DNA of 25,724 nt from a virus (lineage: Duplodnaviria; Heunggongvirae; Uroviricota; Caudoviricetes). The stretch's first letter is position 1, and every line of letters starts with the position of its first letter. The stretch lies in the IMG/VR virus record IMGVR_UViG_2778261058_000001. One strand, written 5' to 3'. Below are positions 5,821-25,724 of the stretch, one piece after another. The notes beneath the pieces are model-generated. The model did not search any database. It was not told the DNA's origin and saw only the letters and a list, made by a program, of their open reading frames with translations. A program made the translations under genes and the position numbers.

Positions 5821-5853
5821 GGCTTAATAAGCCTGCAGGAAGGCTTATTAAGC
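5821..5853 (-). terminator. hairpin with U-rich tail between peptidase gene and chaperone gene
   Basis: 12-bp inverted repeat GGCTTAATAAGC / GCTTATTAAGCC with an 8-nt loop; on the minus-strand RNA it is followed by UCUUAUUCUUGACUUU and then the chaperone ribosome-binding site. Confidence 0.5.
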
Positions 5854-5859
5854 GTAAAA

Positions 5860-6201
5860 TCAGCGCACGCCGTCGTGCTCAAGGCTGAAATGATTGCCAT
5901 CCGGGCGGTTTTTAAAACGACCGCCCCATGCGCCACCAAGGGATTCCCAGTACTCGCCCAGCTCGCGGTAGGCCTCTGTGCGGGTCTGATATTCACCGTT
6001 AATAAACAGGTTAAAATCCACGGCCAGCCGCTGACAGTGCAGGCTGTTGGCAATGCCTGATCCCTTTTGTGCGTTGAGTTTTGCCTGTTCTGGCGTGCGG
6101 TACGCTTCACCGAACGTCAGGCCATAACCGCGCTGATGGGCAAACTGGATGAGTTTTCCGATCATGACGGTAAATTGTTGTTGCTTATCGGAGAGTTTCA
6201 T
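5860..6201 (-). CDS. M15-family zinc peptidase, probable endolysin
   Basis: 113-aa ORF with strong ribosome-binding site AAGGAGCAAAAATG. Motifs SLHCQRLAVDFNL and DGNHFSLEH fit the His/Asp/His zinc-binding pattern of small M15 peptidases; no signal peptide. Confidence 0.7.
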   Translation of the reverse strand: MKLSDKQQQFTVMIGKLIQFAHQRGYGLTFGEAYRTPEQAKLNAQKGSGIANSLHCQRLAVDFNLFINGEYQTRTEAYRELGEYWESLGGAWGGRFKNRPDGNHFSLEHDGVR

Positions 6202-6305
6202 TTTTGCTCCTTATGAGGTTGCTGAGGTTTGCGCAGCCAGTACCACAGTGCCCGGATAATTTTCCAGGCAATGGCGGCAGCTTTTTGTTCCCTGCGGGAC
6301 AGCAT
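6198..6305 (-). CDS. possible 35-aa amphipathic peptide between holin-like and peptidase genes
   Basis: ATG at 6305..6303, 5 nt after the holin-like stop; ends in TGA overlapping the peptidase ATG (ATGA). Translation MLSRREQKAAAIAWKIIRALWYWLRKPQQPHKEQK. Below the ORF-track size cutoff; coding status uncertain. Confidence 0.3.
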   Translation of the reverse strand: MLSRREQKAAAIAWKIIRALWYWLRKPQQPHKEQK

Positions 6306-6310
6306 TGCTG

Positions 6311-6607
6311 TTACTCCTCTTTGTTCTCTTTCTCGCCCAGCTTCCGGCGCATATGACGCAGGAAGATTTCAACAATCTGGTAACCGGCAACGCCCATTGC
6401 GGTGCCTGCGCCGGCAATGGCCAGTGGGTCAAGGTTCGGGTAGCGAACCAGCAGGGCAGCGGCAGAAACACCCAGCGCGCTCCCCAGCAGGGTTCGGCCC
6501 ACAAACAACCGCAACGTAATCGGCTCTGCGCCAGCCAGCACCCGACTTGCGGCAGCGATTCCGCCCAGAATGCCCAGAGTGATAATGGTGCGCTCATGCT
6601 CCTGCAT
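6311..6607 (-). CDS. holin-like small membrane protein
   Basis: 98 aa with three predicted hydrophobic helices (ITLGILGGIAAASRVLAGA; LRLFVGRTLLGSALGVSAAALLV; LAIAGAGTAMGVAGYQIVEIF) and a charged C-terminus RRKLGEKENKEE; sits just upstream of the peptidase gene. Confidence 0.5.
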   Translation of the reverse strand: MQEHERTIITLGILGGIAAASRVLAGAEPITLRLFVGRTLLGSALGVSAAALLVRYPNLDPLAIAGAGTAMGVAGYQIVEIFLRHMRRKLGEKENKEE

Positions 6608-6610
6608 GGT

Positions 6611-7066
6611 TCACCCCATCAGTCCGCGCACGTCGTTCTCTGAGAGAACGGGCACGCCGTTGATACGCACAAAGTCAGGGCTTGCCACCACGTACTTGAT
6701 TTTGTGCGTGGTCAGATCTGCGCTCTCGGTGTCAATGCTTAACAGGCCGGAAAGCATCAGCTCACAACCGAAGGCTTCAACGCGGATTTCTTCGCTTCCC
6801 GTATTGGCGTAAAACACAAAATCCATTGGCGGCAGATCGCGCCACGATCCCGCCTGAGCAGCCACTTCCCCGAGCTGGTTAAAGCTGCGGGTACTCATTT
6901 CGATTTCACCTTCGGCACTGACAGGGCCGCGCAGTTTGCCGTCAGGGATGCCACGGGTTTTGGCAACGGCGCTTTCATCGCTGATGTCCAGTGAGATGCT
7001 TTTCACATGGATATCCGTTCCACCGATAAAGGTGTCAAACGCCATGCCGTTAATGCGGGTCGTCAT
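6611..7066 (-). CDS. tail tube protein
   Basis: 151-aa ORF directly after the sheath gene (ATGA overlap at 7063..7066); size and position are typical of contractile-tail tube proteins. Confidence 0.7.
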   Translation of the reverse strand: MTTRINGMAFDTFIGGTDIHVKSISLDISDESAVAKTRGIPDGKLRGPVSAEGEIEMSTRSFNQLGEVAAQAGSWRDLPPMDFVFYANTGSEEIRVEAFGCELMLSGLLSIDTESADLTTHKIKYVVASPDFVRINGVPVLSENDVRGLMG

Positions 7067-8211
7067 GCGTTTTCCTCCAGAGATTTATCCAGCTGAATGC
7101 CCACTTTGATGGTTTTAGGGCAGGCGTAAGGGCGGACGACAATGCTGATGCTGACCGTCTTTTCGTCCTGCCAGGTGATAACCACGTCGCCTTTCTGAGG
7201 CGATTTCACTTCGCCCGGAAACGTGATGCCGTTAATTTGCATGGATTTCGCCATGGCACGCAATGGGCGGGCAAACAGCGTTTCATGTGCGGCAATGCTG
7301 CCCGGCGTGCTGTTCAGTGAGCGATCGGCAATTTTGGGGATGGCCATCAGCCGCACGCGGCGCGCCACCTTATCAGCAATGCGGACATGCTCAATGACGT
7401 TGTAGTCCCCGCCTTCCACCTCAAGTGTTACACCGTCAGCCCAGTAAAGGCCGTCATAGTCGGCATACCACATGGGCACGCTGTAGCGGGCGGTTGCCAG
7501 TGCCTGCAGAGTGTCGAGATCAATTGCCTGCCCTGCGCTGTCTTTCGGGCGTTCCGTGGTCTTCAGTGCGGACAGCGCCCCGGTTGCCACACGTGCCGGA
7601 CTGTCAGCAATGGTGACGGCGCTGTTACACAGGCGACCGGCAAGAACGCCCGGTTCAAATCCAAAAATCTCCGGAACCAGCATGACCTGCGGGGCTGCAA
7701 TGCCTTTCTGTAGTTCGGTCAGTTTGGCAACGTATTCCGCCCAGGTTTTACTGTTGTCGTTGGCGGCGATGGTCAGGATGAACCAGATGCGGCGCTGATA
7801 TTTATTGATGATGGTCTGACGTAACGCCTGTATGGCGTTGATGTCATCCTTCGTGCTGACCGGCTCGGTGATCACCACGCCTTCAACTGAAACAGTTTCC
7901 TGAGCCGCCAGTATGGCGTTCTGCCATACCTGGCAGGCTGGCGTTGCTTCTTTGCCTTTGCCGGCTTCCGGCAGAACGGCAACATAGAAAAAGGCATTCT
8001 GTCCGGCATTGGTCAGTGCAGACTGAAGGAAGTTCTTCAGCGGGCTGGCGTTCTTTCCCAGTAGCTCATCCAGATCGCTGTTGGCATTAACCGGCAGAAC
8101 CTCACCTTTGTTGTTTTGTGCATTGCCCACAAACAGCAGCGTATTTTCCACGCCGTCCGGCGAGCTACTGAACGTGTTGTACTGTTCAATTGTGACAGAT
8201 GGCCAGGTCAT
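7063..8211 (-). CDS. tail sheath protein
   Basis: Track ORF 7063..8343 trimmed to the ATG at 8211..8209 (MTWPSVTIEQ...), which has a GGAGA ribosome-binding site and avoids overlap with the upstream gene. About 382 aa, directly upstream of the tube gene. Confidence 0.75.
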   Translation of the reverse strand: MTWPSVTIEQYNTFSSSPDGVENTLLFVGNAQNNKGEVLPVNANSDLDELLGKNASPLKNFLQSALTNAGQNAFFYVAVLPEAGKGKEATPACQVWQNAILAAQETVSVEGVVITEPVSTKDDINAIQALRQTIINKYQRRIWFILTIAANDNSKTWAEYVAKLTELQKGIAAPQVMLVPEIFGFEPGVLAGRLCNSAVTIADSPARVATGALSALKTTERPKDSAGQAIDLDTLQALATARYSVPMWYADYDGLYWADGVTLEVEGGDYNVIEHVRIADKVARRVRLMAIPKIADRSLNSTPGSIAAHETLFARPLRAMAKSMQINGITFPGEVKSPQKGDVVITWQDEKTVSISIVVRPYACPKTIKVGIQLDKSLEENA

Positions 8212-8230
8212 AATTTGTCTCCTGATTTTG

Positions 8231-8944
8231 TTATCTCGTGCCGCCGTAATGCAGGCTGCGCAGCTGCGCTTCCAGAATGCGGGCAAATTCAGCGTTACTG
8301 GCTCCCAGAAATGCGCGGGAGGGAATTTTGATTTCCCATACACGTTTTTTCTGCTCGCCTTTCAGAATGCTGATCACCAGCCCGGCCTGCGCCATACTCA
8401 TGTTTTCCATAATCCATTTCAGGGAAGGTTTTCTGTATCCCCTGCGTCCGGTTTTTTTGCTGGCCGCGCCGACGGGGGCGCGAAAGCCCAGAGAAAGAAG
8501 GCGTTCTGCCTGCCGTCGTGTGGCGGGACGGGTGCGCATGGCTTCGCTGTCCCGGCGTTTTGTGGCGCGGCCTTTGATGGTTGCGCCGTGCTGTTGCACC
8601 CACGCAACTGCCCCACCATGAGAGCCGGTGTTGTAATCCCCTTTTTTGAAGAAAAGGCGGACACTTTTCCCGCTGCCGTCAACCCTGATGGCCAGCAGTT
8701 TCGGCAGTCCCAGCAGCATTTTGTTTTTATACCTGCCGCTGGCTTTATCCGGTCTTTTTCGTGGTGCCCAGGCTGCCCCCTCCGGTGTTCGCTGTGCTTT
8801 CACATTGCGTCGTGCAGCCGGTATCAGGCCGTATTTCGCAATGCGAACCAACAGCTTTCTGGCCTTTGCCGGCGGAAGTTCTGCCTCTCTGATGGCGCGA
8901 CGAACCTGCCGGAGTTGTGACTCGTTAATCACGGGGCGCGTCAT
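8231..8944 (-). CDS. virion morphogenesis / tail completion protein, P2 gpS-like
   Basis: 237-aa basic protein between the R-like gene and the sheath gene; resembles the phage virion morphogenesis family by eye; ATGA overlap with the upstream gene at 8941..8944. Confidence 0.6.
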   Translation of the reverse strand: MTRPVINESQLRQVRRAIREAELPPAKARKLLVRIAKYGLIPAARRNVKAQRTPEGAAWAPRKRPDKASGRYKNKMLLGLPKLLAIRVDGSGKSVRLFFKKGDYNTGSHGGAVAWVQQHGATIKGRATKRRDSEAMRTRPATRRQAERLLSLGFRAPVGAASKKTGRRGYRKPSLKWIMENMSMAQAGLVISILKGEQKKRVWEIKIPSRAFLGASNAEFARILEAQLRSLHYGGTR

Positions 8945-9414
8945 GGCATCACCTGACAGTGAAGCTGATGCGCCTGAGCCACCCAGATTTCAGGCTTTTC
9001 CAGCTGGTAACGTTTCCCGCCTCTGGGGATGGGGCCGTTTTCGTCCTCAACCAGGGTGATGGGATCAACCAGCGGCAGACTGATTTCCAGCCATGCCACT
9101 TCATTTTCATCATCCACTTCGACGTCAACGGCTGGCGCATCCGGTGCCAGGCGCTGGCGCAGGTCGCCGCCGTTGTCTGCCAGCCAGGCTTCAACCAGAG
9201 AAAACACCAAATCCGGATTCAGTTTGCGGTAGGGCCATGCGTCCCATCGCAGAAAAGCCGTATATTTTCGAACCTGCGTACATAATTGCCCGTGCCCCAG
9301 CGACTTCGTAAACGGAACGAGCGTGATGTCATCCATGTCACTGGTGAACGGAATGCGTGCGCGTGCCGGCAGATTGTTTTCAATGAATGCCGTCAGGCTG
9401 GCGAGTTGCGTCAT
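8941..9414 (-). CDS. tail completion protein, P2 gpR-like (mainly positional)
   Basis: 157-aa acidic ORF immediately after the head completion gene and before the S-like gene, as R is in P2; sequence similarity to gpR is only weakly recognisable. Confidence 0.45.
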   Translation of the reverse strand: MTQLASLTAFIENNLPARARIPFTSDMDDITLVPFTKSLGHGQLCTQVRKYTAFLRWDAWPYRKLNPDLVFSLVEAWLADNGGDLRQRLAPDAPAVDVEVDDENEVAWLEISLPLVDPITLVEDENGPIPRGGKRYQLEKPEIWVAQAHQLHCQVMP

Positions 9415-9423
9415 ACCATTTCC

Positions 9424-9918
9424 TTAATCAATCAGCGCGATGGATGCACGCGGTCGGCCCAGCAGCGCCCGCACCGCCATTGCCGCTTCAGCCAGCAACG
9501 TCCGGCGGCTCTCGCTGGCTTCTGATGAGGGCTGCGCCTCGCGTCGCCCCACGCTGGCAGATTCCGGCAAAAGATCAGCCTTTGCGCGGGCATACACAGC
9601 CTTGGTGTACAGTGCTGTAATGTGGTTCTGCATCCGTTCAGGTTGTGCATCCGTATTGCGCGGCTCTGGTTGCAACACGGTGTACCCCGGAATATCAGCG
9701 GCCCGGATGTGGCCCTGTTCCTGCCAGTATTCACGGCGTGCAGCCAGTTCAGTGTTAATCTCTGTTACCGCGCAAAGCAGCGCCGTCAGCACCGTTTCGT
9801 GTGACGTGACGGCGGGGATGCTGCGGCTCTTTTCAAAATCGCCGGCATCAATATCCGGCCAGAATCCATCGTTCTGAATAATGGCCTGCTGATAGTGAAT
9901 GCTTTTCCCGTCAAACAT
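9424..9918 (-). CDS. L: head completion protein, P2 gpL-like
   Basis: Track ORF 9424..10113 trimmed to the ATG at 9918..9916 (MFDGKSIHYQQAIIQNDGFWPDIDAGDF...), giving 165 aa (P2 L is about 169). Motif FWPDID...TEINTELAARREYWQEQ parallels P2 L (FFFPDID...ETNAELYEYREQ) from memory. Confidence 0.7.
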   Translation of the reverse strand: MFDGKSIHYQQAIIQNDGFWPDIDAGDFEKSRSIPAVTSHETVLTALLCAVTEINTELAARREYWQEQGHIRAADIPGYTVLQPEPRNTDAQPERMQNHITALYTKAVYARAKADLLPESASVGRREAQPSSEASESRRTLLAEAAMAVRALLGRPRASIALID

Positions 9919-10016
9919 GCTCACTCCGGGGAAAGGCGGGCTGACCGGTTTCCGCAGTGTGCTGATGGCTTTTGCCGGCACACCTCCACCGCGCCCGCCC
10001 GGTTGTTGGGAGTCGT

Positions 10017-10727
10017 TTACGTGCCCTGCAACGCGCGCAGTCTTGCGGCAATGCGCTGGCGCAGAGTTTTCACCTGAATTTTTGGATGCAGCCAGGCAGC
10101 CCGTTCCAGACACTGGTCGGCCTGTTGCAGTCTCTCCGGATCGTTAATTGCACTGGCCAGCGGTTTACCGTCATCGCCGCGCAGCAGCAGGACGCCTGCA
10201 AAGCGCCAGTAGCGGGCAGCAAGGCGTTCATTCACGCGCCATTTGTCACGGATTTTTTCAAACACCTGCTGAAAATATGGCGCGATACTGTTCCCACGTT
10301 CAGCTTCGGTTTCTGCCCATTCAAGAATGAAATGGGCCACAAACGTTGGCAGCTCGCTTTTGAAGTTCTCCGGCGTCTTTTGCCCCTGCTCAATGGCAAT
10401 GTCAGCCCACCGCAGCGCCATCTCAAACTGCCCGGTATCGAACAGCCAGATGATGCAGTACACCAGAATGGGATTCTGATAGACGCGTTCCCCCTCCAGA
10501 TAAGCCTGTGCGTGTGGCAGCCAGCGGGGCAGCAGCGTGTTCCGTTTGAATTCCAGCTTGTCAGACAGCAGCTCCATGTTGTGCAGTTGTCTGATGTCGT
10601 TATCCAGTGCCAGCAGCTTAATGTGCTGACTCTCTGTGCTGATGGCGCTCCCGTCCGTTCTGGTCATGAGCGCCGCACGGCGCTCATCCATCTGTCGGGC
10701 GCGTTGTCGCTGCATTGGCGTTGGCAT
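10017..10727 (-). CDS. M: terminase small (endonuclease) subunit, P2 gpM-like
   Basis: 236-aa ORF following the capsid gene. Segment LLPRWLPHAQAYLEG...ILVYCIIWLFDTGQFEMALRWADIAIEQG parallels P2 M (LLPFWLPWVNGVLELG...LMTVMLWRLDTGDIAGALEIARYALKYG) from memory. Exact start codon uncertain. Confidence 0.75.
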   Translation of the reverse strand: MPTPMQRQRARQMDERRAALMTRTDGSAISTESQHIKLLALDNDIRQLHNMELLSDKLEFKRNTLLPRWLPHAQAYLEGERVYQNPILVYCIIWLFDTGQFEMALRWADIAIEQGQKTPENFKSELPTFVAHFILEWAETEAERGNSIAPYFQQVFEKIRDKWRVNERLAARYWRFAGVLLLRGDDGKPLASAINDPERLQQADQCLERAAWLHPKIQVKTLRQRIAARLRALQGT

Positions 10728-10744
10728 ACCGTGCGCTCCGTTTA

Positions 10745-11758
10745 TCAGGCGATGGTGACCGCAGACTCATCTACGGCAGCATATAAATCCGGATCGCCCA
10801 GGGCGTACCCCTCGTAACGCCAGTATGAGTTTTCGAACTGTTTGCGATCGCCCACATCTTCTGCCTTGCGGCGGCGGGAGCCTTTCAGCGTCAGGATCTG
10901 CAGGTTTGGCAGCATGGTCACCACCATACGTTTGCCCGGCATAAACGGCGGAATGATGGCCTTGCGGCCTGCAATGTTCTTTGTCAGCAACTGTGCGGCC
11001 ACTTTTTCGGTAGGCTTATCCTCTTTGTTGTAGAGGCGTAGTTCTTCAGCAGCCACAAGGTCTGCGCCGACCAGTACGGTAAGTCGTGGGTCGTTGTGAT
11101 ACTGTGCCGGGATGTAAGTGCGGATCAGGTCTGAGGCCATGGCATCAAGACCGACATAATCGCCGCCTTCGCCCAGGGTAACGGCGTCTGTCAGAATACG
11201 GGAGGTATTGCCGGGCTGTTCTCCCCACTTTTTGGCGATTTCATGCCAGCCGATGTTGACGTCTTCGCCGTTCGGATGACTTTCCGGGTCAGAGTTTTCC
11301 GCTGCTGTTTTACCGTTAAAGCCAATGCGCAGCATATCCAGCGCAAAGTTGGTGACGGCGGCGGAGTTCATCAGGTTGAAAAATTCCTGCGGGCTGCCGG
11401 CATTCGCCCAGATGGCGAGTTGTTCCCAGGTGATCACGCAGCAGGAATCAGTTTCAACGAGTTTAAATTCGTTGCCTTTGATGCCCGAACCTTTAGCGAA
11501 ACGACCGCTTTTCACGCGACCGGTGCGCAGTGTGGATTCGCCCACGGTGACGACCTGCCCCTGCGGGTGCGGAACGTCCATGCAGGTGATGAAACTCAGA
11601 AACTCCGTGCTTTCCAGCAGGGCTTTACGCAGAGCAATACTGCGTGGCTCGGTCAGCGAAAAGAAACGATCGCTTGATTTCCCGCAGTCACTGAATGTTT
11701 TTTGCAGTTCGCTGATGTACTGATTAACCAGCTTTTGTGCTTCTGGTGTCATGTTCAT
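10745..11758 (-). CDS. N: major capsid protein, P2 gpN-like
   Basis: 337 aa. Segments RIGFNGKTAAENSDPESHPNGEDVNIGWHEI and GEGGDYVGLDAMASDLIRTYIPAQYHNDPRLTVLVGADLVAAEE match P2 N motifs (MAGFNGVKRAETSDRSSNP...VGW; GKGGDYASLDAL...YQEDPDLVVIVGRQLLADK) from memory. Confidence 0.9.
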   Translation of the reverse strand: MNMTPEAQKLVNQYISELQKTFSDCGKSSDRFFSLTEPRSIALRKALLESTEFLSFITCMDVPHPQGQVVTVGESTLRTGRVKSGRFAKGSGIKGNEFKLVETDSCCVITWEQLAIWANAGSPQEFFNLMNSAAVTNFALDMLRIGFNGKTAAENSDPESHPNGEDVNIGWHEIAKKWGEQPGNTSRILTDAVTLGEGGDYVGLDAMASDLIRTYIPAQYHNDPRLTVLVGADLVAAEELRLYNKEDKPTEKVAAQLLTKNIAGRKAIIPPFMPGKRMVVTMLPNLQILTLKGSRRRKAEDVGDRKQFENSYWRYEGYALGDPDLYAAVDESAVTIA

Positions 11759-11772
11759 TGCGTTCTCTCCGG

Positions 11773-12669
11773 TTACACCAGGTTAAAAGTTTCGCCACCG
11801 GCCGGATTGTTGCCCGGCAGCTTCGTGGCGTCCTTGCTGAGTTCAGCAAATGCGGTTTCCATACTGGTAACCTTCTCCGCGATGGCGTTCACTGTGGAGA
11901 ACAACTTTTCGCCCTGCCCGGTGGTCAGCGTGAAGGTTTTGTCGTCCTTGTTGTTCTGTTCTGCGTTGTCCTGCCCCTGATCGCCGGTGCTGCCTTCCGG
12001 CTTGTTATCACCGGTATCTTTCGGGGCATCCTTCGCGCTGAACTGCGCGACGTTTTTTTCCAGCTCGTCCAGGCGTTCACTGGTTTTATTAATGGCACCC
12101 ATTAACTGGCTGAACTGTTCTTCGTTCATGGCTTGGTAAATTCCCTGTTGGTGATTGTCAGATGAGAAGAAGCGGGAGAAGAAGTTGCGCTTGGCCTGCT
12201 CATCATCAGGCTGCAGCGTAAAATTCAGCGCCTCTGCGTTGCCCATATGGATGGCTTCCCCCATGGAAAACTGCAGGCGTGTAGTGTTAATGCTGGCTGG
12301 GGTATCCGTCACGGCGATACCGGACACAAAGAATTTGCCCGTGCCCAGATAGTTTTCCCGCACTTCAATGGAGGTAAAAAGTTTCTGCCCGGCCTTATTG
12401 GCTTCAATCAGGAAGCGATTTGGGATCAGGCGTGCTTTAAGCTGCACCTTTTCACCAAATTTTTCGACTTTCAGGGCATCAACAATGCCGTAGTTATTGG
12501 TGAAGGCACGCCAGCCGGAATCGGCGTGATATGGCCAGAGCATGGCGGCTCGCTCGTCCGGGTTGTAAACCTCGGCGGCATCCGTCAGCCACTTCGGATC
12601 AATTTCCCGACCGTCGATGGTGGGGCCTGATGTGGCAACCACAACCCAGTCTGTTTTCTGCTTCGTCAT
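11773..12669 (-). CDS. O: capsid scaffolding protein, P2 gpO-like
   Basis: 298 aa. N-terminal domain (TIDGREIDPKWL...LKARLIPNRFLIEANKAGQKLFTSIEVRENYLGTGKFFVSGIAVTDTPASI) parallels P2 O; acidic coiled C-terminal half typical of scaffolds. Confidence 0.85.
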   Translation of the reverse strand: MTKQKTDWVVVATSGPTIDGREIDPKWLTDAAEVYNPDERAAMLWPYHADSGWRAFTNNYGIVDALKVEKFGEKVQLKARLIPNRFLIEANKAGQKLFTSIEVRENYLGTGKFFVSGIAVTDTPASINTTRLQFSMGEAIHMGNAEALNFTLQPDDEQAKRNFFSRFFSSDNHQQGIYQAMNEEQFSQLMGAINKTSERLDELEKNVAQFSAKDAPKDTGDNKPEGSTGDQGQDNAEQNNKDDKTFTLTTGQGEKLFSTVNAIAEKVTSMETAFAELSKDATKLPGNNPAGGETFNLV

Positions 12670-12752
12670 CTGAATTAATCCGCTGATAAAAATTAAACTG
12701 GCGTTATTTAACGGAGAAATGAAAACGTCGTCATCTGATTAATTTCCGGTAC

Positions 12753-14651: not shown

Positions 14652-15678
14652 AAAGAAAAAATACCCCGTGTTACACGATGGCGTGGCAAAAAAAACAGCC
14701 AGCAAAATGACGTTTATTGAATTTGGTGACCCGGAACCGGTCGCTGCATGGGGCTGTTATTACGGCTCGCTCTGGGATGGCTATAACGGCTGGTACACGC
14801 CGCCCATTGAGCGCATGGATCTCGCCATGTTGTCCAATATCGCACCGTATCACGGCGCGGTATTGCGTGCGCGCGTCAATATGATCATGCAGGGTTTTCG
14901 GGGTGGTGGTGGTATGACACACGCCGCCATGGCGGCAGCAGTAACCAATCTGCTGATATTCGGGGATATGGGGTTGCTTAAAGTGCGCAATGGCTTCGGT
15001 CGAGTGGTGCGCCTGCATACGTTACCTTCTCTGTACCTGCGGCGTAACAACGAGGGTGGCACGGTGATTGTGCAGGCGGCACTGGAAGATCTCGTTTACC
15101 CGCCAGGCGAAGTGGTGTTCGTGGCCATTTATGACCCGCAACAGCAGGTTTACGGTGTCCCGGATTATATTCACGGGATGGAATCCGCCATGCTGAATGT
15201 GGATGCCACCCGCTTTCGCCGCAAGTATTACAAGAACGGCGCACATCTTGGTTATATCCTGTATTCCACTGACCCGGACATGGATCCCGAGCTCGAGGCG
15301 GAATTCCGTAAAAAGATAGAGGCGTCAAAAGGGGCGGGCAATTTTAAATCCATGTTTATCAATATACCTGGCGGAGACAAAGAAGGCGTTAAGGTGATCC
15401 CTATCGGGGATTCAGGCACAAAAGATGAGTTCCTGAATATAAAAACCATCAGTGCCCAGGATCAGCTCGTTGCGCACCGCTTTCCACCCGGGCTTGCCGG
15501 CATCATTCCCGCAAATACGGCCGGGCTTGGTGATCCGCTGAAATCCCGAGAGGCATATTACAGAGATGAGGTTATTCCGATGCGCCGTCTGATTATGGAG
15601 GGGATCAACAGCGACCCGGATATCAGACGGCTGGGGCAGGTGGAATTTATTCTTGAATTTAACGAATCCACGGAGTGA
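14644..15678 (+). CDS. Q: portal protein, P2 gpQ-like
   Basis: 344 aa, the same length as P2 Q. Starts MSKKKKYP; segment RFRRKYYKNGAHLGYILYSTDPD matches P2 Q (LFRRKYYENGAHAGYIMYVTD) from memory. Confidence 0.85.
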   Translation: MSKKKKYPVLHDGVAKKTASKMTFIEFGDPEPVAAWGCYYGSLWDGYNGWYTPPIERMDLAMLSNIAPYHGAVLRARVNMIMQGFRGGGGMTHAAMAAAVTNLLIFGDMGLLKVRNGFGRVVRLHTLPSLYLRRNNEGGTVIVQAALEDLVYPPGEVVFVAIYDPQQQVYGVPDYIHGMESAMLNVDATRFRRKYYKNGAHLGYILYSTDPDMDPELEAEFRKKIEASKGAGNFKSMFINIPGGDKEGVKVIPIGDSGTKDEFLNIKTISAQDQLVAHRFPPGLAGIIPANTAGLGDPLKSREAYYRDEVIPMRRLIMEGINSDPDIRRLGQVEFILEFNESTE

Positions 15679-15743
15679 TGTGCGGTATGGGGAAAGAGCG
15701 GGTAAAATCGGCGGCAGTAAAACGCTGTTCCGGGAGGTGGAAA

Positions 15744-16001
15744 ATGCGCAGACAGAAAGCGCGATGTCATTGCTGCGGTGCACATGCAGTGATTGAGAAA
15801 ACAGCCTGGAAAACCGATCAGTTTGCTGATGTGTATTACCGTTGCACCCGTCTCGAGTGCGGACATACCTGGGTGATGAATCTGACCTACTCGCACACAC
15901 TGGTGCCCAGCGGGCTGGATAACGGTGTGTTAAAGCTGTTGATTGAACGGATGCGCCCGGAAGAAAAACAAATGGCGCTGGAATTGTTGCAAGCGGGTTA
16001 G
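15744..16001 (+). CDS. ogr: Ogr/Delta-family zinc-finger late transcription activator
   Basis: Track ORF 15675..16001 trimmed to the ATG at 15744, which has a GGGAGGTGG ribosome-binding site (85 aa). Contains C-x2-C-x22-C-x4-C (CHCCGAHAVIEKTAWKTDQFADVYYRCTRLEC), the exact cysteine spacing of the Ogr zinc finger. Confidence 0.75.
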   Translation: MRRQKARCHCCGAHAVIEKTAWKTDQFADVYYRCTRLECGHTWVMNLTYSHTLVPSGLDNGVLKLLIERMRPEEKQMALELLQAG

Positions 16002-16308: not shown

Positions 16309-16596
16309 TCAGCGTGGATAAATTAACTTGAATTTGAGGAAGTTTTGTTTAATCCAGTCTTTAACATTTTCCCTTCCCTGAATACCTGATGGTAAGTGTT
16401 CGTGAATCATCCATTCAACAATGAGTTTTTCTTTCAGGGTGTATGCCTTAAAGGAATTAAGCATATTTAGTACTTCATAACCTTCTTTGCGGCTAAACCG
16501 ATGGCGGTCAGCAGCGGTTTTCGTGGGATCATCTCCTGGCAAAGCAGTCCAACTGTAATCGTCATAAAATAAATCGCTTCTTTTGATATCGGTCAT
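16309..16596 (-). CDS. hypothetical protein (95 aa) in AT-rich cargo islet
   Basis: ORF with AAGGATAATCAAATG ribosome-binding site; local GC visibly lower than the flanking phage genes; no family recognised. Confidence 0.5.
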   Translation of the reverse strand: MTDIKRSDLFYDDYSWTALPGDDPTKTAADRHRFSRKEGYEVLNMLNSFKAYTLKEKLIVEWMIHEHLPSGIQGRENVKDWIKQNFLKFKLIYPR

Positions 16597-16661: not shown

Positions 16662-16940
16662 TTACGCAGCTTTGAGCAGAGCGCTGCTCATTGCATAGTC
16701 GTACCCAAGCATGTATGCCTCAAAGGCATCTTTATGTCTGACTGTGCCAGCCTGGCTATATGGAATATTTGCCAGGAAGGAATCATCTTTTGCTTTAGGA
16801 ATACCGATCATTGCATGAAGTACACCAAGCTCGTATGCGCAGGCTGCGCAGCGGTGGCGGCCTGTTTGCCCTTGGTTATCGGGAAGGTGTGAGTATTGGG
16901 GGTTGTATCGGTGGGAATTTTTACAAATCTTTATACCCAT
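16662..16940 (-). CDS. hypothetical protein (92 aa) in AT-rich cargo islet
   Basis: ORF with GAGGT ribosome-binding site 9 nt upstream of the ATG; contains CAACAYELGVLH; no family recognised. Confidence 0.5.
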   Translation of the reverse strand: MGIKICKNSHRYNPQYSHLPDNQGQTGRHRCAACAYELGVLHAMIGIPKAKDDSFLANIPYSQAGTVRHKDAFEAYMLGYDYAMSSALLKAA

Positions 16941-17080: not shown

Positions 17081-17166
17081 ATGCATGACACACAAACAAA
17101 GTGGTCATATCGTGATCGATCCTACAAAATCCCACACAGCTGTCAAGGGTATTGATCGTTTTAATC

Positions 17167-17188
17167 GATAGATAAATCAATATCTATC
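17167..17188. repeat. perfect palindrome GATAGATA-N6-TATCTATC in a GATC-rich AT-rich spacer
   Basis: Read directly: GATAGATA (17167-17174), AATCAA, TATCTATC (17181-17188). GATC sites nearby at about 17115, 17119, 17154 and 17198. Confidence 0.4.
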
Positions 17189-17250
17189 TGTTTAACAGAT
17201 CGATTATTAAGGTAAGCATGGGGGGCACCCCATAAAAGGTGTTTTATAGG

Positions 17251-17565
17251 TTATTCTGGAAAAAACGCCTGAATATTCTTTTTCACCTGCTGCATATGGG
17301 GGGCGCTGTCTGCTGCTGGTTGCGCCGGTTTTTCAGGCTGCACTGGTAGCGGTGGCATCCGTATTTCGTCTTCTGACCATTCTGCCAGCGAATACGCCAA
17401 CGCGGGGGTGCGTTTTATAAGAGCCAGTCCGGCCAGAAAAGCCGCGCGTTGTGCGCGGCTGCGTTCGGAGGCTGGCAGGCTGTCGAGGTAATTGCACGCC
17501 TCCCGTTCGCTCTTGACGACGGCGGGCTTCAGATAGAAACTTATCCGTCTGGTTGGTGTCGTCAT
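17251..17565 (-). CDS. parR: plasmid partition centromere-binding protein ParR (StbB)
   Basis: Track ORF 17251..17694 trimmed to the ATG at 17565..17563 with an AAGGAG ribosome-binding site (105 aa). ISFYLKP...CNYLDSLPASERSRAQRAAFLAGLAL parallels R1 ParR (IAFKLNP...CDTLDSIPQGERSRLNRAALTAGLAL) from memory; immediately downstream of parM. Confidence 0.8.
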   Translation of the reverse strand: MTTPTRRISFYLKPAVVKSEREACNYLDSLPASERSRAQRAAFLAGLALIKRTPALAYSLAEWSEDEIRMPPLPVQPEKPAQPAADSAPHMQQVKKNIQAFFPE

Positions 17566-17569
17566 TGGT

Positions 17570-18529
17570 TTACTCCTTGTCCATTGCGTACAGCCCATTA
17601 ACCAGAGCAAACTGTGGCACCCCGTCCGCGATGAAAGTCGCATTAACTCCGCAGGCTTCGCGGATAGCGGGTGCCACAATCTCCGCTCCTCCACCTACAA
17701 CCATCACCCGCCCGTAACCCGAAAAACCCGCCAGCGCGCGGATCACGCGTTGTTTCAGTGTTTCCTCCTTTTCACGAATAACTGCCATCAGGCTGGCGTA
17801 ATGTGCGTTATTGTGGATGTGCTGGCGCAGCCAAGCTTCATCGTGGCGATGTTCGATAATGGTATTAGCGATGTGGTGACTGGTACGCATACCGTTGGTG
17901 GCCATCACCGACAGCACGGCATCGGCCATCAGAGAAACGCCTACGTGTGGATCGCAAAACACCTGGCTGATACCTGCCAGTTGTCCCTGAACCTTTGCCA
18001 CATCCAGCGTGGTTCCGCCCAAATCCACAATCAGCAGGGATTCAAACTGACTCATGTCAGCCAGTGCCTTAAAGCCAGCCGGAATGGATTCAGGCATAAC
18101 CCGTACGTTGCGGATAGTGAATGCCTCACTGTTCTGATACTCCACCGGGCGCATAACGTTCGCTTTTTTGCGGTTGATGTTGGTCATATCCGGCTGGGCG
18201 TTTGTGTCGAAATACTCGCTCAGTGGCAGGGTGACAACCACATCCACTTCCTGTGGTGTGATACCTGATTTGACCAGCGCGTGATGAATGGCAATGACAT
18301 TCACATCGCTGTACTGGTATTGCGTGTCGGTCGTCTGGACAAAGCGATCGCTGACCGGATCAAAACCATAGCGCACGCCATCAAGCATGTAGTTTGCGGG
18401 CTGCGTGCCACCGAACGGCGCAGACCATTCCGACTTGAAGCTGTTCGGGCTGATGGCGTTGCGGCGTTCGCCGTTCTCAGTCCATGCCAGCTTGATGTTG
18501 GTGGAGCCGTCGTCGATACAAATTTTCAT
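17570..18529 (-). CDS. parM: actin-like plasmid segregation ATPase ParM (StbA)
   Basis: 319 aa. MKICIDDGSTNIKLAW, ISPNSFK, YSDVNVIAIHHAL, NAQPDMTNINRKKAN, VMPESIPAG, LIVDLGGTTLDV, VMVVGGGAE and LVNGLYAM all match remembered R1 ParM motifs along the full length. Confidence 0.9.
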   Translation of the reverse strand: MKICIDDGSTNIKLAWTENGERRNAISPNSFKSEWSAPFGGTQPANYMLDGVRYGFDPVSDRFVQTTDTQYQYSDVNVIAIHHALVKSGITPQEVDVVVTLPLSEYFDTNAQPDMTNINRKKANVMRPVEYQNSEAFTIRNVRVMPESIPAGFKALADMSQFESLLIVDLGGTTLDVAKVQGQLAGISQVFCDPHVGVSLMADAVLSVMATNGMRTSHHIANTIIEHRHDEAWLRQHIHNNAHYASLMAVIREKEETLKQRVIRALAGFSGYGRVMVVGGGAEIVAPAIREACGVNATFIADGVPQFALVNGLYAMDKE

Positions 18530-18560: not shown

Positions 18561-18673
18561 TTTACGGGATTCTGAAATCCCGCTTTCGCCTGTTTTGTGC
18601 GCGCTTCATATATCGCGGCGCGTTTTTTGCTCATTTACGGGATTTGTAAATCCCGTTTTTGTCTGTTTTTTGT
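18561..18673. repeat. two ~40-bp direct repeats, each with a 6-bp hairpin, upstream of parM (parC-like or origin-like)
   Basis: Copy 1 at 18561-18598 (TTTACGGGATTCTGAAATCCCGCTTTCGCCTGTTTTGT); copy 2 at 18634-18673 (TTTACGGGATTTGTAAATCCCGTTTTTGTCTGTTTTTTGT). Each contains CGGGAT-N6-ATCCCG; copies are 73 bp apart. A 12-bp palindrome GGTTAATTAACC lies at 18548-18559. Confidence 0.5.
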
Positions 18674-21431
18674 TTCCACTGGTCAGGCCACCCCGCAGCA
18701 GGTTTGCTTTGCGGCGGGCGCGTTCAGTGGTTTCACTGATTCTCTGTGCGTGCTCTGCGTCACGGATGGCGCGCAGCATGTCAGAAAGCACGGTAACGGG
18801 TGTTTTCATGGTGTTCTGGTCTTGCTGAAGTGTGGATGCCAGGCGTGCGGCGGCTTCGGGGTCTGATGCCCCCAGCTGTTCCAGATAGCTGGCGACCGGG
18901 TTATGACGGATCTCCGTGCTGCTTACGCCGTGATTGCGGCTCAGGCGCTGCCAGAGCTGCGTGATTCGGCTGTCCGGGCGGGTATCCGGTTTGCGTACAA
19001 TTTCAAATCCCTGCGGTGCAATGATGCTGCCGTCAACGTACAGGCTGCCGCCCCGTAACAGGTGCTGCATCTGCTGTTCACCGATATGCAGGCCGAGAGA
19101 TTCAGCAGACTCCCGCCATTCTTTAGCGAGTAACTCGTGGTTATCAGGCAAAGGCTGTGGCTGTTTGCGGCTCTGTGTCCAGTTCTGCATTTCATCGCTG
19201 CTGTTTTTTGCCTGTTTGTCACGAAGCGAACGCATCAGCGCCCGGCGTTCGTGCCGTTTCAGTGAGCGCATCCATTCATTTACTTCAACGCCGTCAGGAA
19301 GCTGCGGCCACGGTGCTGGCCGTTCTTCCGGCTGTTCTGTCCCGTTGTTGTCCGTTTCCTGTACACGGGGACAGTTATTGCCACGAGTCCAAGGGGCGGC
19401 AGGGCCGCCCTGAAGGTCAAAACCATTTTCGCGGGTGCTGTCTTCCGCTTCCGGTTTACGTCTTACCAGCTTCCAGTTATCCGGATGCGTGCACACACGG
19501 GAGGATTCCCCGATGAGTGGTGACCAGATCCCGTAAATCTGTACACTCTGCTCGCCGTAATCGTTCAGCTCATCTGCGAGGTCGTAGGCGGTGCGAATCA
19601 GGTAGTCTTTGCGTGGAACAAGTACGCCGCCCTGTTTCTCTATGTAGGTGGCAAAACATCCGGCATCAGCGGCAGCGAGTACCGCATCCATTGCGTCATT
19701 TTCCAGACGTTGCGGTCCCTGTGGGTTACGTGCCATCTGACAGGCAAGGCGGCGCAGTTCACGCCACACCTGACGGGAGGGGATGCCAAAGAACTGGAAC
19801 TGGCGGACCCGGTGAAGGCGCGCCCAGCCGATGGCGCGTTCCACGCTTTCTGCCATCGTCTTTCCTGATTCGTCGTCGATGCGCGGTTTGCCTGTTTTCG
19901 GGTCAATGCCATCCACGGCGCGGCTGTCCAGGTTCTTTCCGATGTAGGTGGCGATGTAGCTGGTCGGCGTACCTTTCGAACCGTCGACGTACTCTGCCTT
20001 AAAGCGCGGAGTTATGTCATTGCCCAGCTCGTGGCGGTCTTCGCGAATGGCAATATCACGGGTGATGTCCACGATGCTGTCGATTTCTTCAGGATGTGCA
20101 AAGACCATCATGTGCCAGTGCACGGTGCCGTCATGGTGAGGCTCCACCGTGCGAATGCCATACCAGCGCAGGCCGTCGCGGTTCAGTTTTTTGCGGACCG
20201 CCTTAAAAAACGTGTTAACCAGGTAATCGCTGGAATCGCGCATGGTGGCCCCGTTCCATTTGGGGTTCGGATGACCGTTCTCCGTTGTTGCGTGGTACTT
20301 CGAAGGGGTAGTGACAGTCAGAAACACCGCTTTGTCGCCACGGGCTTCGGCCAGAAGTTCCAGCCCCTTCATGGTGGCCATCATTTCTGCCTTACGGTGA
20401 ACCGGGTTACTTACTCCCGCGTAATACACTGTCTCGAGATCAATCGTGAACCCGTCTTCGTTTTCCAGCATGAAACTTTTCAGGAAATCGCGTGTTTTCT
20501 CGCGCTGTGCGCGAAACTCGCTTAACGCGTCCTGGCTCAGATAAGGCGATGTTTTTCTGGAAACCAGACAGGCGGCGCGGAGTTGTTCTTCTCTCCACTC
20601 GCAACGTAACAGCCACAGTTTGCGTTTCCACCAGTCCGCACAGGTCAGGCGAAGGATTGCGCCCGGCAGCAGTTCCGTATCCGGTTCGCTCTTGTTCAGG
20701 GCTTCGTAATGTGGCGGCATGATGTGCAGGCGTAATGCGATACGAGCCAGCATCCGGTAAGCCTTCAACATTACATCCATGGTCAGCTCGCCATCTCTGG
20801 CACCAAAGCCATCGCAGAGTGTTTCGAAGGTGCTGCTGAACATCGCCGCGGTCATGGTGGCCAGCGTCTGTATCTGGTGCTTGTTGAGCTGCGGCAGGTA
20901 AAGCAAATCGTCCAGGCGTTCGCGCCCGGCAAGGGAGCGATAACCCGGTGTCAGCCAGCGATGATCGGTGCGGTCCAGACGTTCGAATATTTTGCGCAGG
21001 GTCCCACGCGCATAGCGTTCTGCCTGCCTAGCGTTTTTTCCTTTCTGACGATCGGCTTCCTGTTTTTTGCGCAGGAAGGAGAGGTGGCGGCTCAGTGGTT
21101 CACGCAGATAAACAGGTAGTGCCTTTAGTGTGGCAAAGGCACGGGCTACTGGGTCTTGTTCTGTTGCCCGGCGCTTACTGATGATGCTCTGTGCCAGCTT
21201 TTCACGCTGTCCGGCTTCCTCAAGGGATGCCATGAGTTTTTTACCCATGGCGGATTGTGCGAAAAAGGCTTCTTCCTTCGCTTCCTGTTCTTCCCGTGCC
21301 CTTTTGTCTGCCTCAAGGTAGTAACGGATGGCGCGTTGCAGGTCGGTTTCAGTTTCCTGCCTGCGCTCCGTAAATCTGGCCGGATCAATGGCTGGCCGTG
21401 GTTCATTCCAGCTCCATGCAAACTCGCTCAT
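18606..21431 (-). CDS. A: rolling-circle replication initiator (HUH endonuclease), P2 gpA-like
   Basis: Track ORF 18606..21458 trimmed to the ATG at 21431..21429, which overlaps the upstream stop (ATGA); 941 aa. HUH motif VHWHMMVF and tyrosine motif TSYIATYIGKN (Y-x3-Y then K) as in P2 and phiX174 gene A proteins. Convergent with Q/P as in P2. Confidence 0.8.
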   Translation of the reverse strand: MSEFAWSWNEPRPAIDPARFTERRQETETDLQRAIRYYLEADKRAREEQEAKEEAFFAQSAMGKKLMASLEEAGQREKLAQSIISKRRATEQDPVARAFATLKALPVYLREPLSRHLSFLRKKQEADRQKGKNARQAERYARGTLRKIFERLDRTDHRWLTPGYRSLAGRERLDDLLYLPQLNKHQIQTLATMTAAMFSSTFETLCDGFGARDGELTMDVMLKAYRMLARIALRLHIMPPHYEALNKSEPDTELLPGAILRLTCADWWKRKLWLLRCEWREEQLRAACLVSRKTSPYLSQDALSEFRAQREKTRDFLKSFMLENEDGFTIDLETVYYAGVSNPVHRKAEMMATMKGLELLAEARGDKAVFLTVTTPSKYHATTENGHPNPKWNGATMRDSSDYLVNTFFKAVRKKLNRDGLRWYGIRTVEPHHDGTVHWHMMVFAHPEEIDSIVDITRDIAIREDRHELGNDITPRFKAEYVDGSKGTPTSYIATYIGKNLDSRAVDGIDPKTGKPRIDDESGKTMAESVERAIGWARLHRVRQFQFFGIPSRQVWRELRRLACQMARNPQGPQRLENDAMDAVLAAADAGCFATYIEKQGGVLVPRKDYLIRTAYDLADELNDYGEQSVQIYGIWSPLIGESSRVCTHPDNWKLVRRKPEAEDSTRENGFDLQGGPAAPWTRGNNCPRVQETDNNGTEQPEERPAPWPQLPDGVEVNEWMRSLKRHERRALMRSLRDKQAKNSSDEMQNWTQSRKQPQPLPDNHELLAKEWRESAESLGLHIGEQQMQHLLRGGSLYVDGSIIAPQGFEIVRKPDTRPDSRITQLWQRLSRNHGVSSTEIRHNPVASYLEQLGASDPEAAARLASTLQQDQNTMKTPVTVLSDMLRAIRDAEHAQRISETTERARRKANLLRGGLTSGNKKQTKTGFTNPVNEQKTRRDI

Positions 21432-21817
21432 GGCTGGTATCCCGTCACGCGCTGCCACTCCTGCGAGAAGATGGCGGAAAGGCGGTTAAATTCAGCGGTG
21501 TATTCACTCAGCGAGGCACACCCGCCAGCAGTGCGATGCGCCAGCATTGCCGCGAATACGGAGGCCGGGGAGTCGTAATACGCCAGCAGTGATTCGCCGT
21601 GTGGTGTCAGGCAGTGCAACGCCAGCCCGTGTGGTGTGAAGTCCACGCGGTAGCAGTCGTCTACTGTGAAATAAAGGGTGTCCGCATTCTCCGGTTTTGT
21701 AGTGCGTGCTCTGTTGTCACGACCACGGATGTAAAGATCAAATAATCCCTGAAGAACGGGAGCCAGACGGGTGTCCTGTGTGCGCACCCATCTTGTGAAG
21801 TCATGAGCGTCAATCAT
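21428..21817 (-). CDS. hypothetical early protein upstream of gene A (positional analogue of P2 B region)
   Basis: 129-aa ORF translationally coupled to A (ATGA); no family recognised. Confidence 0.4.
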   Translation of the reverse strand: MIDAHDFTRWVRTQDTRLAPVLQGLFDLYIRGRDNRARTTKPENADTLYFTVDDCYRVDFTPHGLALHCLTPHGESLLAYYDSPASVFAAMLAHRTAGGCASLSEYTAEFNRLSAIFSQEWQRVTGYQP

Positions 21818-21889
21818 GCTGCAATTCTCTTTACTACAGATGTGCGAAGGCCTCCCGCCGCAAGGTGCAGGAAAGGCCCGGAACAGGAA

Positions 21890-22120
21890 TTAATGGAGTT
21901 TGTTTTGCTGCTGGATGAGCTGCTGAAGCTCGCGCAGATCATCCGCCAGATAGCTGAAAACAGCGGATGAATAGAGGTTTGAAAGTTCGCAGCTACGCTC
22001 ATGCAGCATATTGATGTGCATGATTTTAGCGACGCGGAATGCGCGGGAAAGTCTGCGGTTGATTTCAGTCTGGATGTGACGACGCTCCGCGATAGCGCGG
22101 TGCTGTTTGCGGTTTGCCAT
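21890..22120 (-). CDS. small basic protein, first gene of the early operon (76 aa)
   Basis: ATG at 22120..22118 with a GAGG ribosome-binding site; basic N-terminus (MANRKQHRAIAERRHIQ...). Function unknown; occupies the position of cox-type early regulators. Confidence 0.4.
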   Translation of the reverse strand: MANRKQHRAIAERRHIQTEINRRLSRAFRVAKIMHINMLHERSCELSNLYSSAVFSYLADDLRELQQLIQQQNKLH

Positions 22121-22130
22121 GGTGTGGCCT

Positions 22131-22349
22131 CGTGTATAGTAAGTTTTGAAAACTCACCATCCAGAGGTGGAAAACTCGGGGTGGTGAGACGTACAGGGTT
22201 TCCACAACCGGCTATACACGAACCCGGCCCGACCGAAGTCGGCCCCATACGCCCCACCATAATTCTGACGCGAAAAAGACGTGGCGATACGGTACGCACA
22301 AAAAAACCGCTGGCGCGGTTGTGCGCGTGTATAGTCAGCGGGGTGGAAA
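22131..22349. promoter_or_regulatory. array of three bipartite repeat elements (CGTGTATAG ... GTGGAAA), middle copy inverted
   Basis: E1: CGTGTATAG 22131-22139 with GTGGAAA 22167-22173. E2 (inverted): TTTCCAC 22199-22205 with CTATACACG 22212-22220. E3: CGTGTATAG 22326-22334 with GTGGAAA 22343-22349. E1 overlaps the 5' leader and ribosome-binding site of the first early gene. Confidence 0.55.
22296..22320 (-). terminator. rho-independent terminator, minus strand
   Basis: Minus-strand RNA reads AACCGC-GCCA-GCGGUU followed by UUUUUUUGUG (plus strand 22296-22320: ACAAAAAAACCGCTGGCGCGGTT). Short GC-rich 6-bp stem with a 7-U tract. Confidence 0.5.
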
Positions 22350-22456
22350 TCCCGGCACCCGTTTTATGAGGTGCAGCGGAAATGTAACCTGACTGATTGC
22401 GGCATGGCAAGCGGTTTTTTTGTGAGAACGGCATACTAAAAAATCCTGATGCTGCT

Positions 22457-22487: not shown

Positions 22488-23318
22488 TTACTTCACCGGA
22501 ACAAACGGAACAGCGGTATTACTGGTCATGTATTGCGGCAGCGTGCCGTTCCATTTGTTGATAGCTTCCAGCTCCATAACGCCGGGGTTCTGGCGCAGAG
22601 CTTCACCGCGCAAACGAATGGCGTCGGCTTCAGCCTGGGCTTTTGTGCGAATGGCATCAGCCTGTCCGGCTGCTTCTGCGCGTAGCATGTTGGCTTCTGC
22701 TTCGCGCTGCTTGACTTCCTGTTCGCGTTGCAGAGTTTTCTGGTTTGCCGTGACTTTGGCATTAATGCTGTCGATAACGGTTGGTGGGTATTCCGGTTTA
22801 CCGACATAAGAGAGGCTCATTACCTGAATGCCGATAGGTGTCATTTCTGCCTGAATGTCTTTAAGTGCTGAATCCAGCAGTTCAGACTTGCCGCCGTCGA
22901 TAAATTTATCGGTGGTCATTTTGCTGGCCAGTCGGTTGAGTGCGTCGGCGATCTTCTGGCGCAGGTCAGTGTCGGTAATGTCATCCACGCCTTTGCGGTA
23001 GGTCTGAAACACTGTAGTAACTTTGGATGGATCAACCTTGTAGGCCACACCGATGTGATAGCCGATGGTTGTGCCGTCACTCATCTGAAAGCTGAACGGC
23101 TCATCGTAGGTCTTCATTTGTTTGAAGGTTGGGAAGATGTAAACCTCTGTATTCCAGCCTGTCCAGTAGCGGCCAACGCCAACTACTTCGCCGACGCCTT
23201 TGTCGTCGCCCAGCTTGTTGACTTTGATGCCCACATTACCTGGCTCAACGCGATCGCAACCAACCAGCAGGATGGCGGCAAAAAGCGGGAGAATCTGAAA
23301 GAGTTTGAATTTCTTCAT
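22488..23318 (-). CDS. SPFH (band 7 / stomatin-prohibitin) domain lipoprotein
   Basis: 276 aa. N-terminal lipoprotein signal with lipobox LLVGC; central SPFH-like region; C-terminal Ala/Glu/Arg-rich coiled segment (REQEVKQREAEANMLRAEAAGQADAIR...). Confidence 0.7.
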   Translation of the reverse strand: MKKFKLFQILPLFAAILLVGCDRVEPGNVGIKVNKLGDDKGVGEVVGVGRYWTGWNTEVYIFPTFKQMKTYDEPFSFQMSDGTTIGYHIGVAYKVDPSKVTTVFQTYRKGVDDITDTDLRQKIADALNRLASKMTTDKFIDGGKSELLDSALKDIQAEMTPIGIQVMSLSYVGKPEYPPTVIDSINAKVTANQKTLQREQEVKQREAEANMLRAEAAGQADAIRTKAQAEADAIRLRGEALRQNPGVMELEAINKWNGTLPQYMTSNTAVPFVPVK

Positions 23319-25495: not shown

Positions 25496-25610
25496 AAAGC
25501 ACCTGTTATAAATCAGCCTGTTTAATAAAACTTTGCCCGCGAAGCAGACGATCAACCGTGCGTAGTGCTGAACCGCCCCGGTTTTCCTGGAGAGTGTTTT
25601 ATCTGTGAAC

Positions 25611-25724
25611 TCAGGCTGCCAGATCATCGTTTCTGATGGAAGCATAATAAACTTTTTCTGCTTCTGCCGGAGGAATATGGCCCAGCCTTTCCAGCAATCG
25701 TCGATTGTTATACCAGTCCACCCA
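25611..25724 (-). mobile_element. 3' end of an IS3-family (rve/DDE integrase-type) transposase gene; remainder lies beyond the right edge
   Basis: Minus-strand frame open from the window edge reads WVDWYNNRRLLERLGHIPPAEAEKVYYASIRNDDLAA then TGA at 25613..25611; the W-x-D-W-Y-N-x-R...LG...P-x-E pattern is the conserved C-terminal tail of retroviral-integrase-type transposases. Confidence 0.55.

Follow-up and report, generated by a model that had tools for sequence, protein, structure and literature searches.

A ParM–ParR cassette kept with the replication gene gpA in integrating P2-like phages: a candidate DNA-positioning module

ParMRC is the textbook actin-like machine for plasmid segregation, and its presence in a phage genome is often read as the signature of a phage-plasmid. 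What does such a cassette do when its neighbors are P2-like phage genes? The question is raised by the IMG/VR virus record IMGVR_UViG_2778261058_000001 (Caudoviricetes), a DNA stretch of 25,724 nucleotides (referred to as the window), in which parM and parR follow the replication gene gpA on the minus strand in the succession gpA, parM, parR. The surroundings are P2-like, comprising gpA, a P2-type capsid, scaffold, terminase, portal and Ogr, as assigned by Pfam scans and comparison with relatives. The initial annotation had taken the cassette to suggest either a P2-family phage living as a plasmid prophage or a hotspot cargo that stabilizes the element. On balance, and with moderate confidence, we favor a third answer: the cassette would be a functional type II (ParMRC-like) DNA-positioning module and a stable part of the gpA–parM–parR replication module of an integrating, temperate P2-like phage lineage, and neither a plasmid-maintenance device nor swappable cargo. 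The three genes of this module are as follows.

18606–21458, minus strand: gpA, 950 amino acids, P2-type HUH rolling-circle replication endonuclease (Pfam Phage_GPA, E = 1.3e-129)
17570–18529, minus strand: parM, 319 amino acids, actin-like ATPase of the R1 ParM/StbA family
17251–17565, minus strand: parR, 104 amino acids, ribbon-helix-helix centromere-binding adaptor (Plasmid_stab_B, Pfam PF10784, E = 1.4e-24)

The initial annotation had recognized both partition proteins, and homology analyses bore this out. In Pfam, ParM matched StbA_N with E = 3.8e-82 and the ParM C-terminal domain with E = 1.1e-68, well beyond the curated cut-offs in each case, and it was assigned to PHROG 691 ('partition protein'). 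Its residues 2–316 aligned end to end with ParM of plasmid R1 (PDB 1mwk, E = 5.5e-92) with 46% identity over 315 aligned positions, and the catalytic and nucleotide-binding motifs IDDGSTNIK (D6), VMPESIPAG (E148) and DLGGTTLD (D170) are the same in both proteins. A comparison of seven copies gave a ratio of nonsynonymous to synonymous substitution rates (dN/dS) of ~0.06, and amino acid identity is 98–99% versus ~94% at the nucleotide level. Judged by these substitution patterns, ParM is under strong purifying selection.

The open reading frame (ORF) listed by the program for parR (17251–17694) opens at a GTG within parM. We placed the start at 17565, because an ATG is found there 4 nt past the TAA stop of parM with a GGAG 8 nt upstream of it; judged by these signals, the true gene is almost certainly 17251–17565. 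The arrangement described in the initial annotation as R1-like is thus confirmed, with parM preceding parR, as in R1, a gap of 4 nt and the GGAG before the parR ATG. The N-terminus of ParR matched that of pB171 ParR (2jd3) weakly (E = 0.008). An alignment with seven ParRs from phages, integrative and conjugative elements (ICEs) and plasmids revealed a conserved N-terminal strand, R-x-x-x-F-Y-L-x-P, followed by a RAAxLAGLAL helix, and a C-terminal N-x4-F motif was invariant across eight phage, ICE and plasmid ParRs. By alignment, these conserved ends correspond to the predicted DNA-binding and ParM-binding ends of the adaptor. PHROGs families exist for both ParM and ParR.

The cassette is closely tied to gpA, which itself belongs to PHROG 91 ('nicking at origin of replication'). 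Among complete E. coli genomes, 1320 contained a gpA of the window's type and 1242 contained parMR, both counted at ≥80% of the query covered. A contig scan with the single ParM protein retrieved three near-identical loci; more distant relatives were collected by protein search and contig look-ups. Beyond the E. coli cluster with 90–99% identity, the nearest ParM relatives are 54–62% identical, and all four that were looked up (from Plesiomonas, Hafnia, Serratia and Enterobacter) are located in P2-like prophages with the gene order gpA, parM, parR, variable genes, portal; in Hafnia and Enterobacter, gpA and parM are separated by one or two further genes. ParM relatives checked at ≤52% identity were located in an ICE and an integrated plasmid. 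In a neighbor-joining tree calculated without bootstrap, the ParMs from phage contexts formed one clade apart from R1 and the other plasmid and ICE ParMs.

Comparison with cultured phages points in the same direction. At the nucleotide level, the cassette together with the neighboring end of gpA is 93–95% identical to P88-like phages (genus Xuanwuvirus) and to Citrobacter phage phiSM, and the ParM proteins of these phages are 94–99% identical to that of the window (phiSM, 99.1%). Relative to P88, ParM is 98.7% and gpA 85% identical, yet the portal and large terminase share only 30% and 36% identity, respectively; therefore, the cassette travels with the replication and not with the structural module. 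On the other side, nucleotide homology among relatives ends right after or inside parR, and the stretch from parR to ogr/portal varies in gene content between phages (Rrf2, HicAB, a KAP NTPase and unknowns). On this comparative evidence parMR is a core gene pair and not swappable cargo. We accordingly abandoned the hotspot or defense cargo alternative: no PADLOC defense model matched the cassette, which is kept with gpA at a low dN/dS, whereas the genes downstream of it vary.

That the lineage integrates is evident from its genomic locations. The cassette was found in 1303 of 5426 complete E. coli genomes (24%) at 1443 places, 1441 of them chromosomal and two on plasmids. The window as a whole is most closely related to a prophage of E. 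coli ETEC1717 (97% identity over 93% of the window) that is integrated between raiA and pheL/pheA and codes for Cox, a helix-turn-helix repressor and an integrase immediately past the point matching the window's end. P88 codes for integrase, C and Cox, the Plesiomonas locus for integrase, repressor and Cox, and an integrase is also present in pZ1323. For phiSM, integration at pdxB in K-12 was demonstrated experimentally (PMC6456863).

Inspection of the region upstream of parM revealed two identical, perfect dyads.

18565–18582, no strand: proximal dyad CGGGATT-N4-AATCCCG, an exact palindrome in the gpA–parM intergenic region, 53 nt upstream of the parM ATG
18638–18655, no strand: distal dyad CGGGATT-N4-AATCCCG, within the last gpA codons, 126 nt upstream of the parM ATG

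Each dyad is embedded in a copy of a 39-nt direct repeat, the copies being 73 bp apart, and no further perfect copy of the dyad exists in the window. A scan for YGGG-N10-CCCR identified corresponding pairs at −132/−60 in Plesiomonas and −129/−56 in Hafnia, giving a spacing of 72–73 bp in three lineages, and gave no hit ahead of the parM genes examined from plasmids and ICEs. In Hafnia, the gene upstream of the pair is a different ORF and not gpA; the pair stays beside parM, and an assignment of the dyads to gpA was discarded. Only the GGG/CCC ends are common to the dyads across lineages, a pattern that would favor binding of DNA by a protein dimer over formation of an RNA hairpin. As only these ends pair in Plesiomonas and Hafnia, hairpin stability is not the conserved trait. 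RNA hairpins or a terminator were also rejected, since no T-run follows on the transcribed strand and the sole terminator-like call is antisense. We consider the dyads candidate ParR sites that may serve as operator and minimal centromere. No minus-strand terminator was predicted between gpA and parM, and parMR, located behind gpA, is plausibly co-transcribed with the early operon. The TTAATCAA-like stretch that was noted by eye 20–25 nt before the parM ATG, and that is conserved in three lineages, is at most a tentative promoter candidate.

The protein identity, the intact catalytic motifs, the purifying selection, the integrated relatives, the conserved synteny and the conserved site pair are established; from them we infer ParR binding to the dyads, the timing of expression and a benefit to replication. 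In the mechanism proposed, a ribbon-helix-helix dimer of ParR would bind the two YGGG-N10-CCCR dyads, 72–73 bp apart just upstream of parM, and its conserved C-terminal tail would capture the ends of ATP-dependent ParM filaments. These filaments would push or position extrachromosomal phage circles, which would be present only after infection or excision, during gpA-driven rolling-circle replication. Circles separated or spread in this way could be replicated and packaged efficiently, paralleling the AlpC/AlpA/alpS system of prophage CGP3; by analogy with AlpAC, the cassette may thus act on excised, replicating phage circles. Transcription of parMR would probably occur by read-through from the early operon behind gpA.

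Several observations weigh against this proposal. P2 and 186 lack such a cassette and still replicate well, so that any benefit would have to be accessory. Only two candidate sites are present as opposed to the ten iterons of R1, and an R1-like iteron array was absent from the window in searches with Tandem Repeats Finder and for repeats in general, with ~10 kb of the phage located outside the window. A TTATCTC iteron array was found upstream of parM in a plasmid-type relative (L013). With no more than two sites, the dyad pair may act as an autoregulatory operator only, with no working centromere. Furthermore, the two YGGG-N10-CCCR dyads are absent upstream of the Serratia and Enterobacter phage parM genes, which belong to the phage ParM clade and have another upstream architecture. 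It consists of inverted arms, 14 nt long in Serratia and 20 nt in Enterobacter, that are 26–28 nt apart (e.g. TGGGAACAATATAGAAAAAT / ATTTTTCTGTTTCGTTCCCA), and in Serratia also of a direct repeat, ATTTCATGACC.

L008 7887–7978 and L011 6883–6950: inverted-arm regions of the Serratia and Enterobacter phage parM loci

Finally, no consensus match to a sigma-70 promoter was obtained upstream of parM, and truncated E. coli ParM copies exist that form protein clusters of 188–261 amino acids.

One further reading retains DNA movement and adds a direct partner. Here, ParR and ParM would work directly with gpA, as R1 ParMR does with TraI, on a two-dyad centromere and would pull apart the monomer circles arising from rolling-circle replication; we give this a fairly low probability. 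If true, a type II 'plasmid partition' system would gain a new job in lytic replication, in an integrating phage present in about one quarter of E. coli strains. A related version, which also appears rather unlikely, holds that ParM and ParR mainly stimulate nicking at the origin or organize the replisome and do not move DNA via a centromere. It draws on the strict gpA–parM–parR linkage in five genera despite exchange of the structural module, on the minimal cis element with two sites, one of them in the 3′ end of gpA, and on an analogue in R1, whose ParM and ParR bind TraI, an HUH relaxase, and stimulate its nicking, with the ATPase of ParM being stimulated by TraI in turn (PMC4949242). However, the TraI effect in R1 adds to partition and does not replace it, one or two genes separate gpA from parM in Hafnia and Enterobacter, and the conserved DNA-binding strand of ParR together with the paired sites argues that DNA binding matters.

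To a role in establishment or a carrier state we assign a similarly low likelihood. The cassette would then partition unintegrated or excised circles to both daughter cells, resulting in a higher frequency of lysogenization or in maintenance of the phage when attB is occupied. The parts are indeed the same as those of a partition system, the prophage family is very successful (found in 24% of complete E. coli genomes), and one assembly caught a circular copy. A repressed P2-type genome does not replicate, however, and gpA is located in the repressed early operon. For a bipolar ParM spindle, no fewer than two copies are required; with the repressed genome unreplicated, sister copies would rarely be there to separate. 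In addition, no promoter of parM's own was detected.

Persistence of the prophage as a low-copy extrachromosomal circle that ParMR partitions at division, the phage-plasmid lifestyle, is very improbable, and we rejected it. It was suggested by the homology of the cassette to a bona fide plasmid partition system, by the lack of an integrase in the window and by a circular 'plasmid' record of 34.5 kb (NZ_CP148288) that corresponds to a complete P88-like genome. This record itself contains an integrase, and its last 10.5 kb, from parR to the integrase, is 100% identical to an integrated prophage of another strain. P2-like genomes without ParMR are now and then deposited as 'plasmids' as well, and any gpA homologue was found in only 69 of 72,556 plasmid records. 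A check for an integrase and a plasmid replicon, as the initial annotation had proposed, gave integrase, repressor and Cox genes in relatives and no plasmid-type initiator in Pfam scans of the window's ORFs or in the annotations of relatives; the sole replication gene identified among the ORFs scanned was gpA. With virtually all E. coli places chromosomal, the ETEC1717 prophage integrated alongside its integrase, and phiSM integrating at pdxB, the deduction of a plasmid prophage was not upheld.

The statement that the window contains no integrase or repressor is literally true, but as a clue to lifestyle it fails, being an effect of the window's edge. Phage homology stops at ~25569 inside a DUF4761 early gene, and the last 155 bases (25570–25724) encode, on the minus strand, the C-terminus of an IS3-family transposase (...WVDWYNNRRLLERLGHIPPAEAEK..., stop at ~25611) that is present in thousands of copies across E. 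coli. Both genes are missing because the window ends in this insertion sequence (IS) element, which interrupts the early operon. Neither prophage end is within the window, so its own integration state cannot be read from it. The IS insertion also separates the expected early promoter and cox from the remaining early operon (gpA, parMR), and this copy of the prophage may be crippled.

The least likely explanation is that the cassette is a hitch-hiking plasmid remnant or a weapon against plasmids or other phages (by incompatibility or defense), much less likely than the gpA-cofactor and establishment roles: it adjoins a variable cargo region with changing neighbors, and truncated copies exist, but strong purifying selection, ancient conserved synteny and the lack of a matching PADLOC model argue against it, and cross-binding to plasmid centromeres is unlikely because the candidate ParR sites differ from the TTATCTC-type iterons of L013. 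The variable cargo region of P2-like phages is known to accumulate defense genes. In the window, it contains two minus-strand ORFs, 16309–16596 (phrog_33929) and 16662–16940 (phrog_3941), neither of which had Pfam or PADLOC matches. Upstream of them is a near-consensus promoter (TTGACA-16-TAGGAT, 17146 to 17119), and just upstream of this promoter is an operator-like 24-nt inverted repeat (17151–17174 / 17181–17204). This repeat was excluded as an element of the cassette, as it is located in the variable region and forms part of the cargo promoter.

Further features of the element were recorded alongside. Two allelic types of ParR, 54% identical, were distinguished, one in the window, ETEC1717 and E. 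albertii and the other in P88 and Salmonella, a feature of the 3′ two thirds of the gene (17251–17413 in the window); both adjoin a nearly identical ParM, occur with the same dyad sites and have the first ~16 residues and the N-terminal strand in common. Nucleotide alignment with P88 and the related phage records listed sets in at ~17368–17423, within parR, where by this alignment a recombination boundary appears to lie. The gpA protein is longer (950 amino acids) than those of relatives (785–907), and the Pfam GPA domain covers only about residues 194–513; the long C-terminal part corresponds to PHROG 6857 and 14885, and its last codons hold the distal dyad. In the early operon, a protein of the SPFH/Band 7 domain family (22488–23318, 276 amino acids, Pfam E = 7.6e-31) and an Ash-family protein (21814–22434) are encoded. 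The structural module (window 1–12700), with portal and large terminase 30% and 36% identical to P88, is not of the P88 type and is closer to that of a Plesiomonas prophage (75% and 76%, respectively). In the closest relative, the tail genes carry the annotations DUF2586, tape measure, DUF2590 and baseplate J, and neither a sheath nor a tube is among them; a siphovirus morphology was reported for phiSM, which has its ParM in common with the window. In its makeup, the element resembles a mosaic in which P88-type replication genes are joined to a different virion module. The Ogr/Delta zinc-finger gene (15675–16001) directly follows the portal gene and overlaps its end; the start annotated in a relative corresponds to ~15744 of the window. 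Ogr is found after the portal gene in the Plesiomonas and Hafnia prophages, too; in P2, ogr is located beside gene D near att. Lastly, a 226-kb contig (L005, NZ_JBQPOM010000071.1) labelled as the Firmicute 'Vagococcus sp. WN89Y' contains an E. coli-type prophage cassette with a 97% identical ParM, most likely owing to assembly contamination or mislabelling.

The genes themselves are not new: parM and parR are already annotated in GenBank, and relatives carry ParM or partition protein labels. A 'plasmid stability' ORF of phiSM was counted among its fitness cargo but went unstudied (PMC6456863), and a literature search retrieved no experiments on the ParM of P2-like or Xuanwuvirus phages. What seems new is that the phage ParMs form a clade of their own that goes with gpA, that two dyads lie upstream of parM, and that carrying this cassette does not indicate life as a plasmid. 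Ordinary integrating prophages, of E. coli and of several other Enterobacterales, can have an intact and strongly conserved ParMR among their core genes; for this reason, calling phage-plasmids from partition genes can mislead. P88 or phiSM in E. coli K-12 offers a tractable Gram-negative system for the role of a cytomotive filament in a small rolling-circle phage, and the two-dyad element, if bound by ParR, would represent an unusually small centromere. The results also bear on why chromosomes should carry ParMs at all (PMC12270681), and they connect to AlpAC of CGP3 as the single precedent.

Among known systems, R1 ParMRC (ParM/StbA, ParR/StbB, parC) is the closest by homology. The full length of ParM and its nucleotide-binding motifs, the Pfam family of ParR with its ribbon-helix-helix N-terminus and conserved C-terminal tail, the parM–parR order and the position of the candidate sites upstream of parM are all shared. 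The cassette differs in residing in an integrating phage beside a rolling-circle initiator and not on a low-copy plasmid, and in having two 18-bp dyads 73 bp apart in place of an iteron array; parC of R1 consists of ten direct 11-bp iterons flanking the promoter. With 104 amino acids, the ParR of the window is also shorter than the ParRs compared (116–138 amino acids).

The only other ParM homologue of a cultured phage in the phage collection is the StbA-type ParM of phage D6, which is 47% identical over the full length. D6 is a P1-like phage-plasmid that needs partition, with a genome of 91 kb, unlike the integrating Xuanwuvirus/P88 group. ParM/ParR pairs are also encoded on the chromosomes of Desulfitobacterium and Clostridium (cParMs), where they assemble into filaments and may do more than segregate plasmids; a term search of the 2025 paper describing them found neither 'phage' nor 'prophage' (PMC12270681). 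These are Firmicute systems, whereas in the family studied here the chromosomal location is explained by the prophage.

The closest functional model is AlpC/AlpA/alpS of the integrated prophage CGP3 in Corynebacterium glutamicum, where an actin-like protein and an adjacent, co-transcribed DNA-binding adaptor act on excised circular phage DNA and support its efficient replication (PMC4446434, PMC5539076). The adaptor binds repeats upstream of its own operon, which is induced early after excision, and loss of AlpAC lowers the phage DNA copy number ~2-fold (PMC4446434). Differences are the Gram-positive host, the large cryptic prophage and a gene order in which the adaptor comes first (alpAC); the TTAAnnG repeats of alpS bear no relation to the dyads of the window, and AlpC is likened to ParM by function. 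The likeness lies in the arrangement, an actin-like protein paired with an adaptor in an integrated prophage, with sites (in the window, candidate sites) upstream of the operon.

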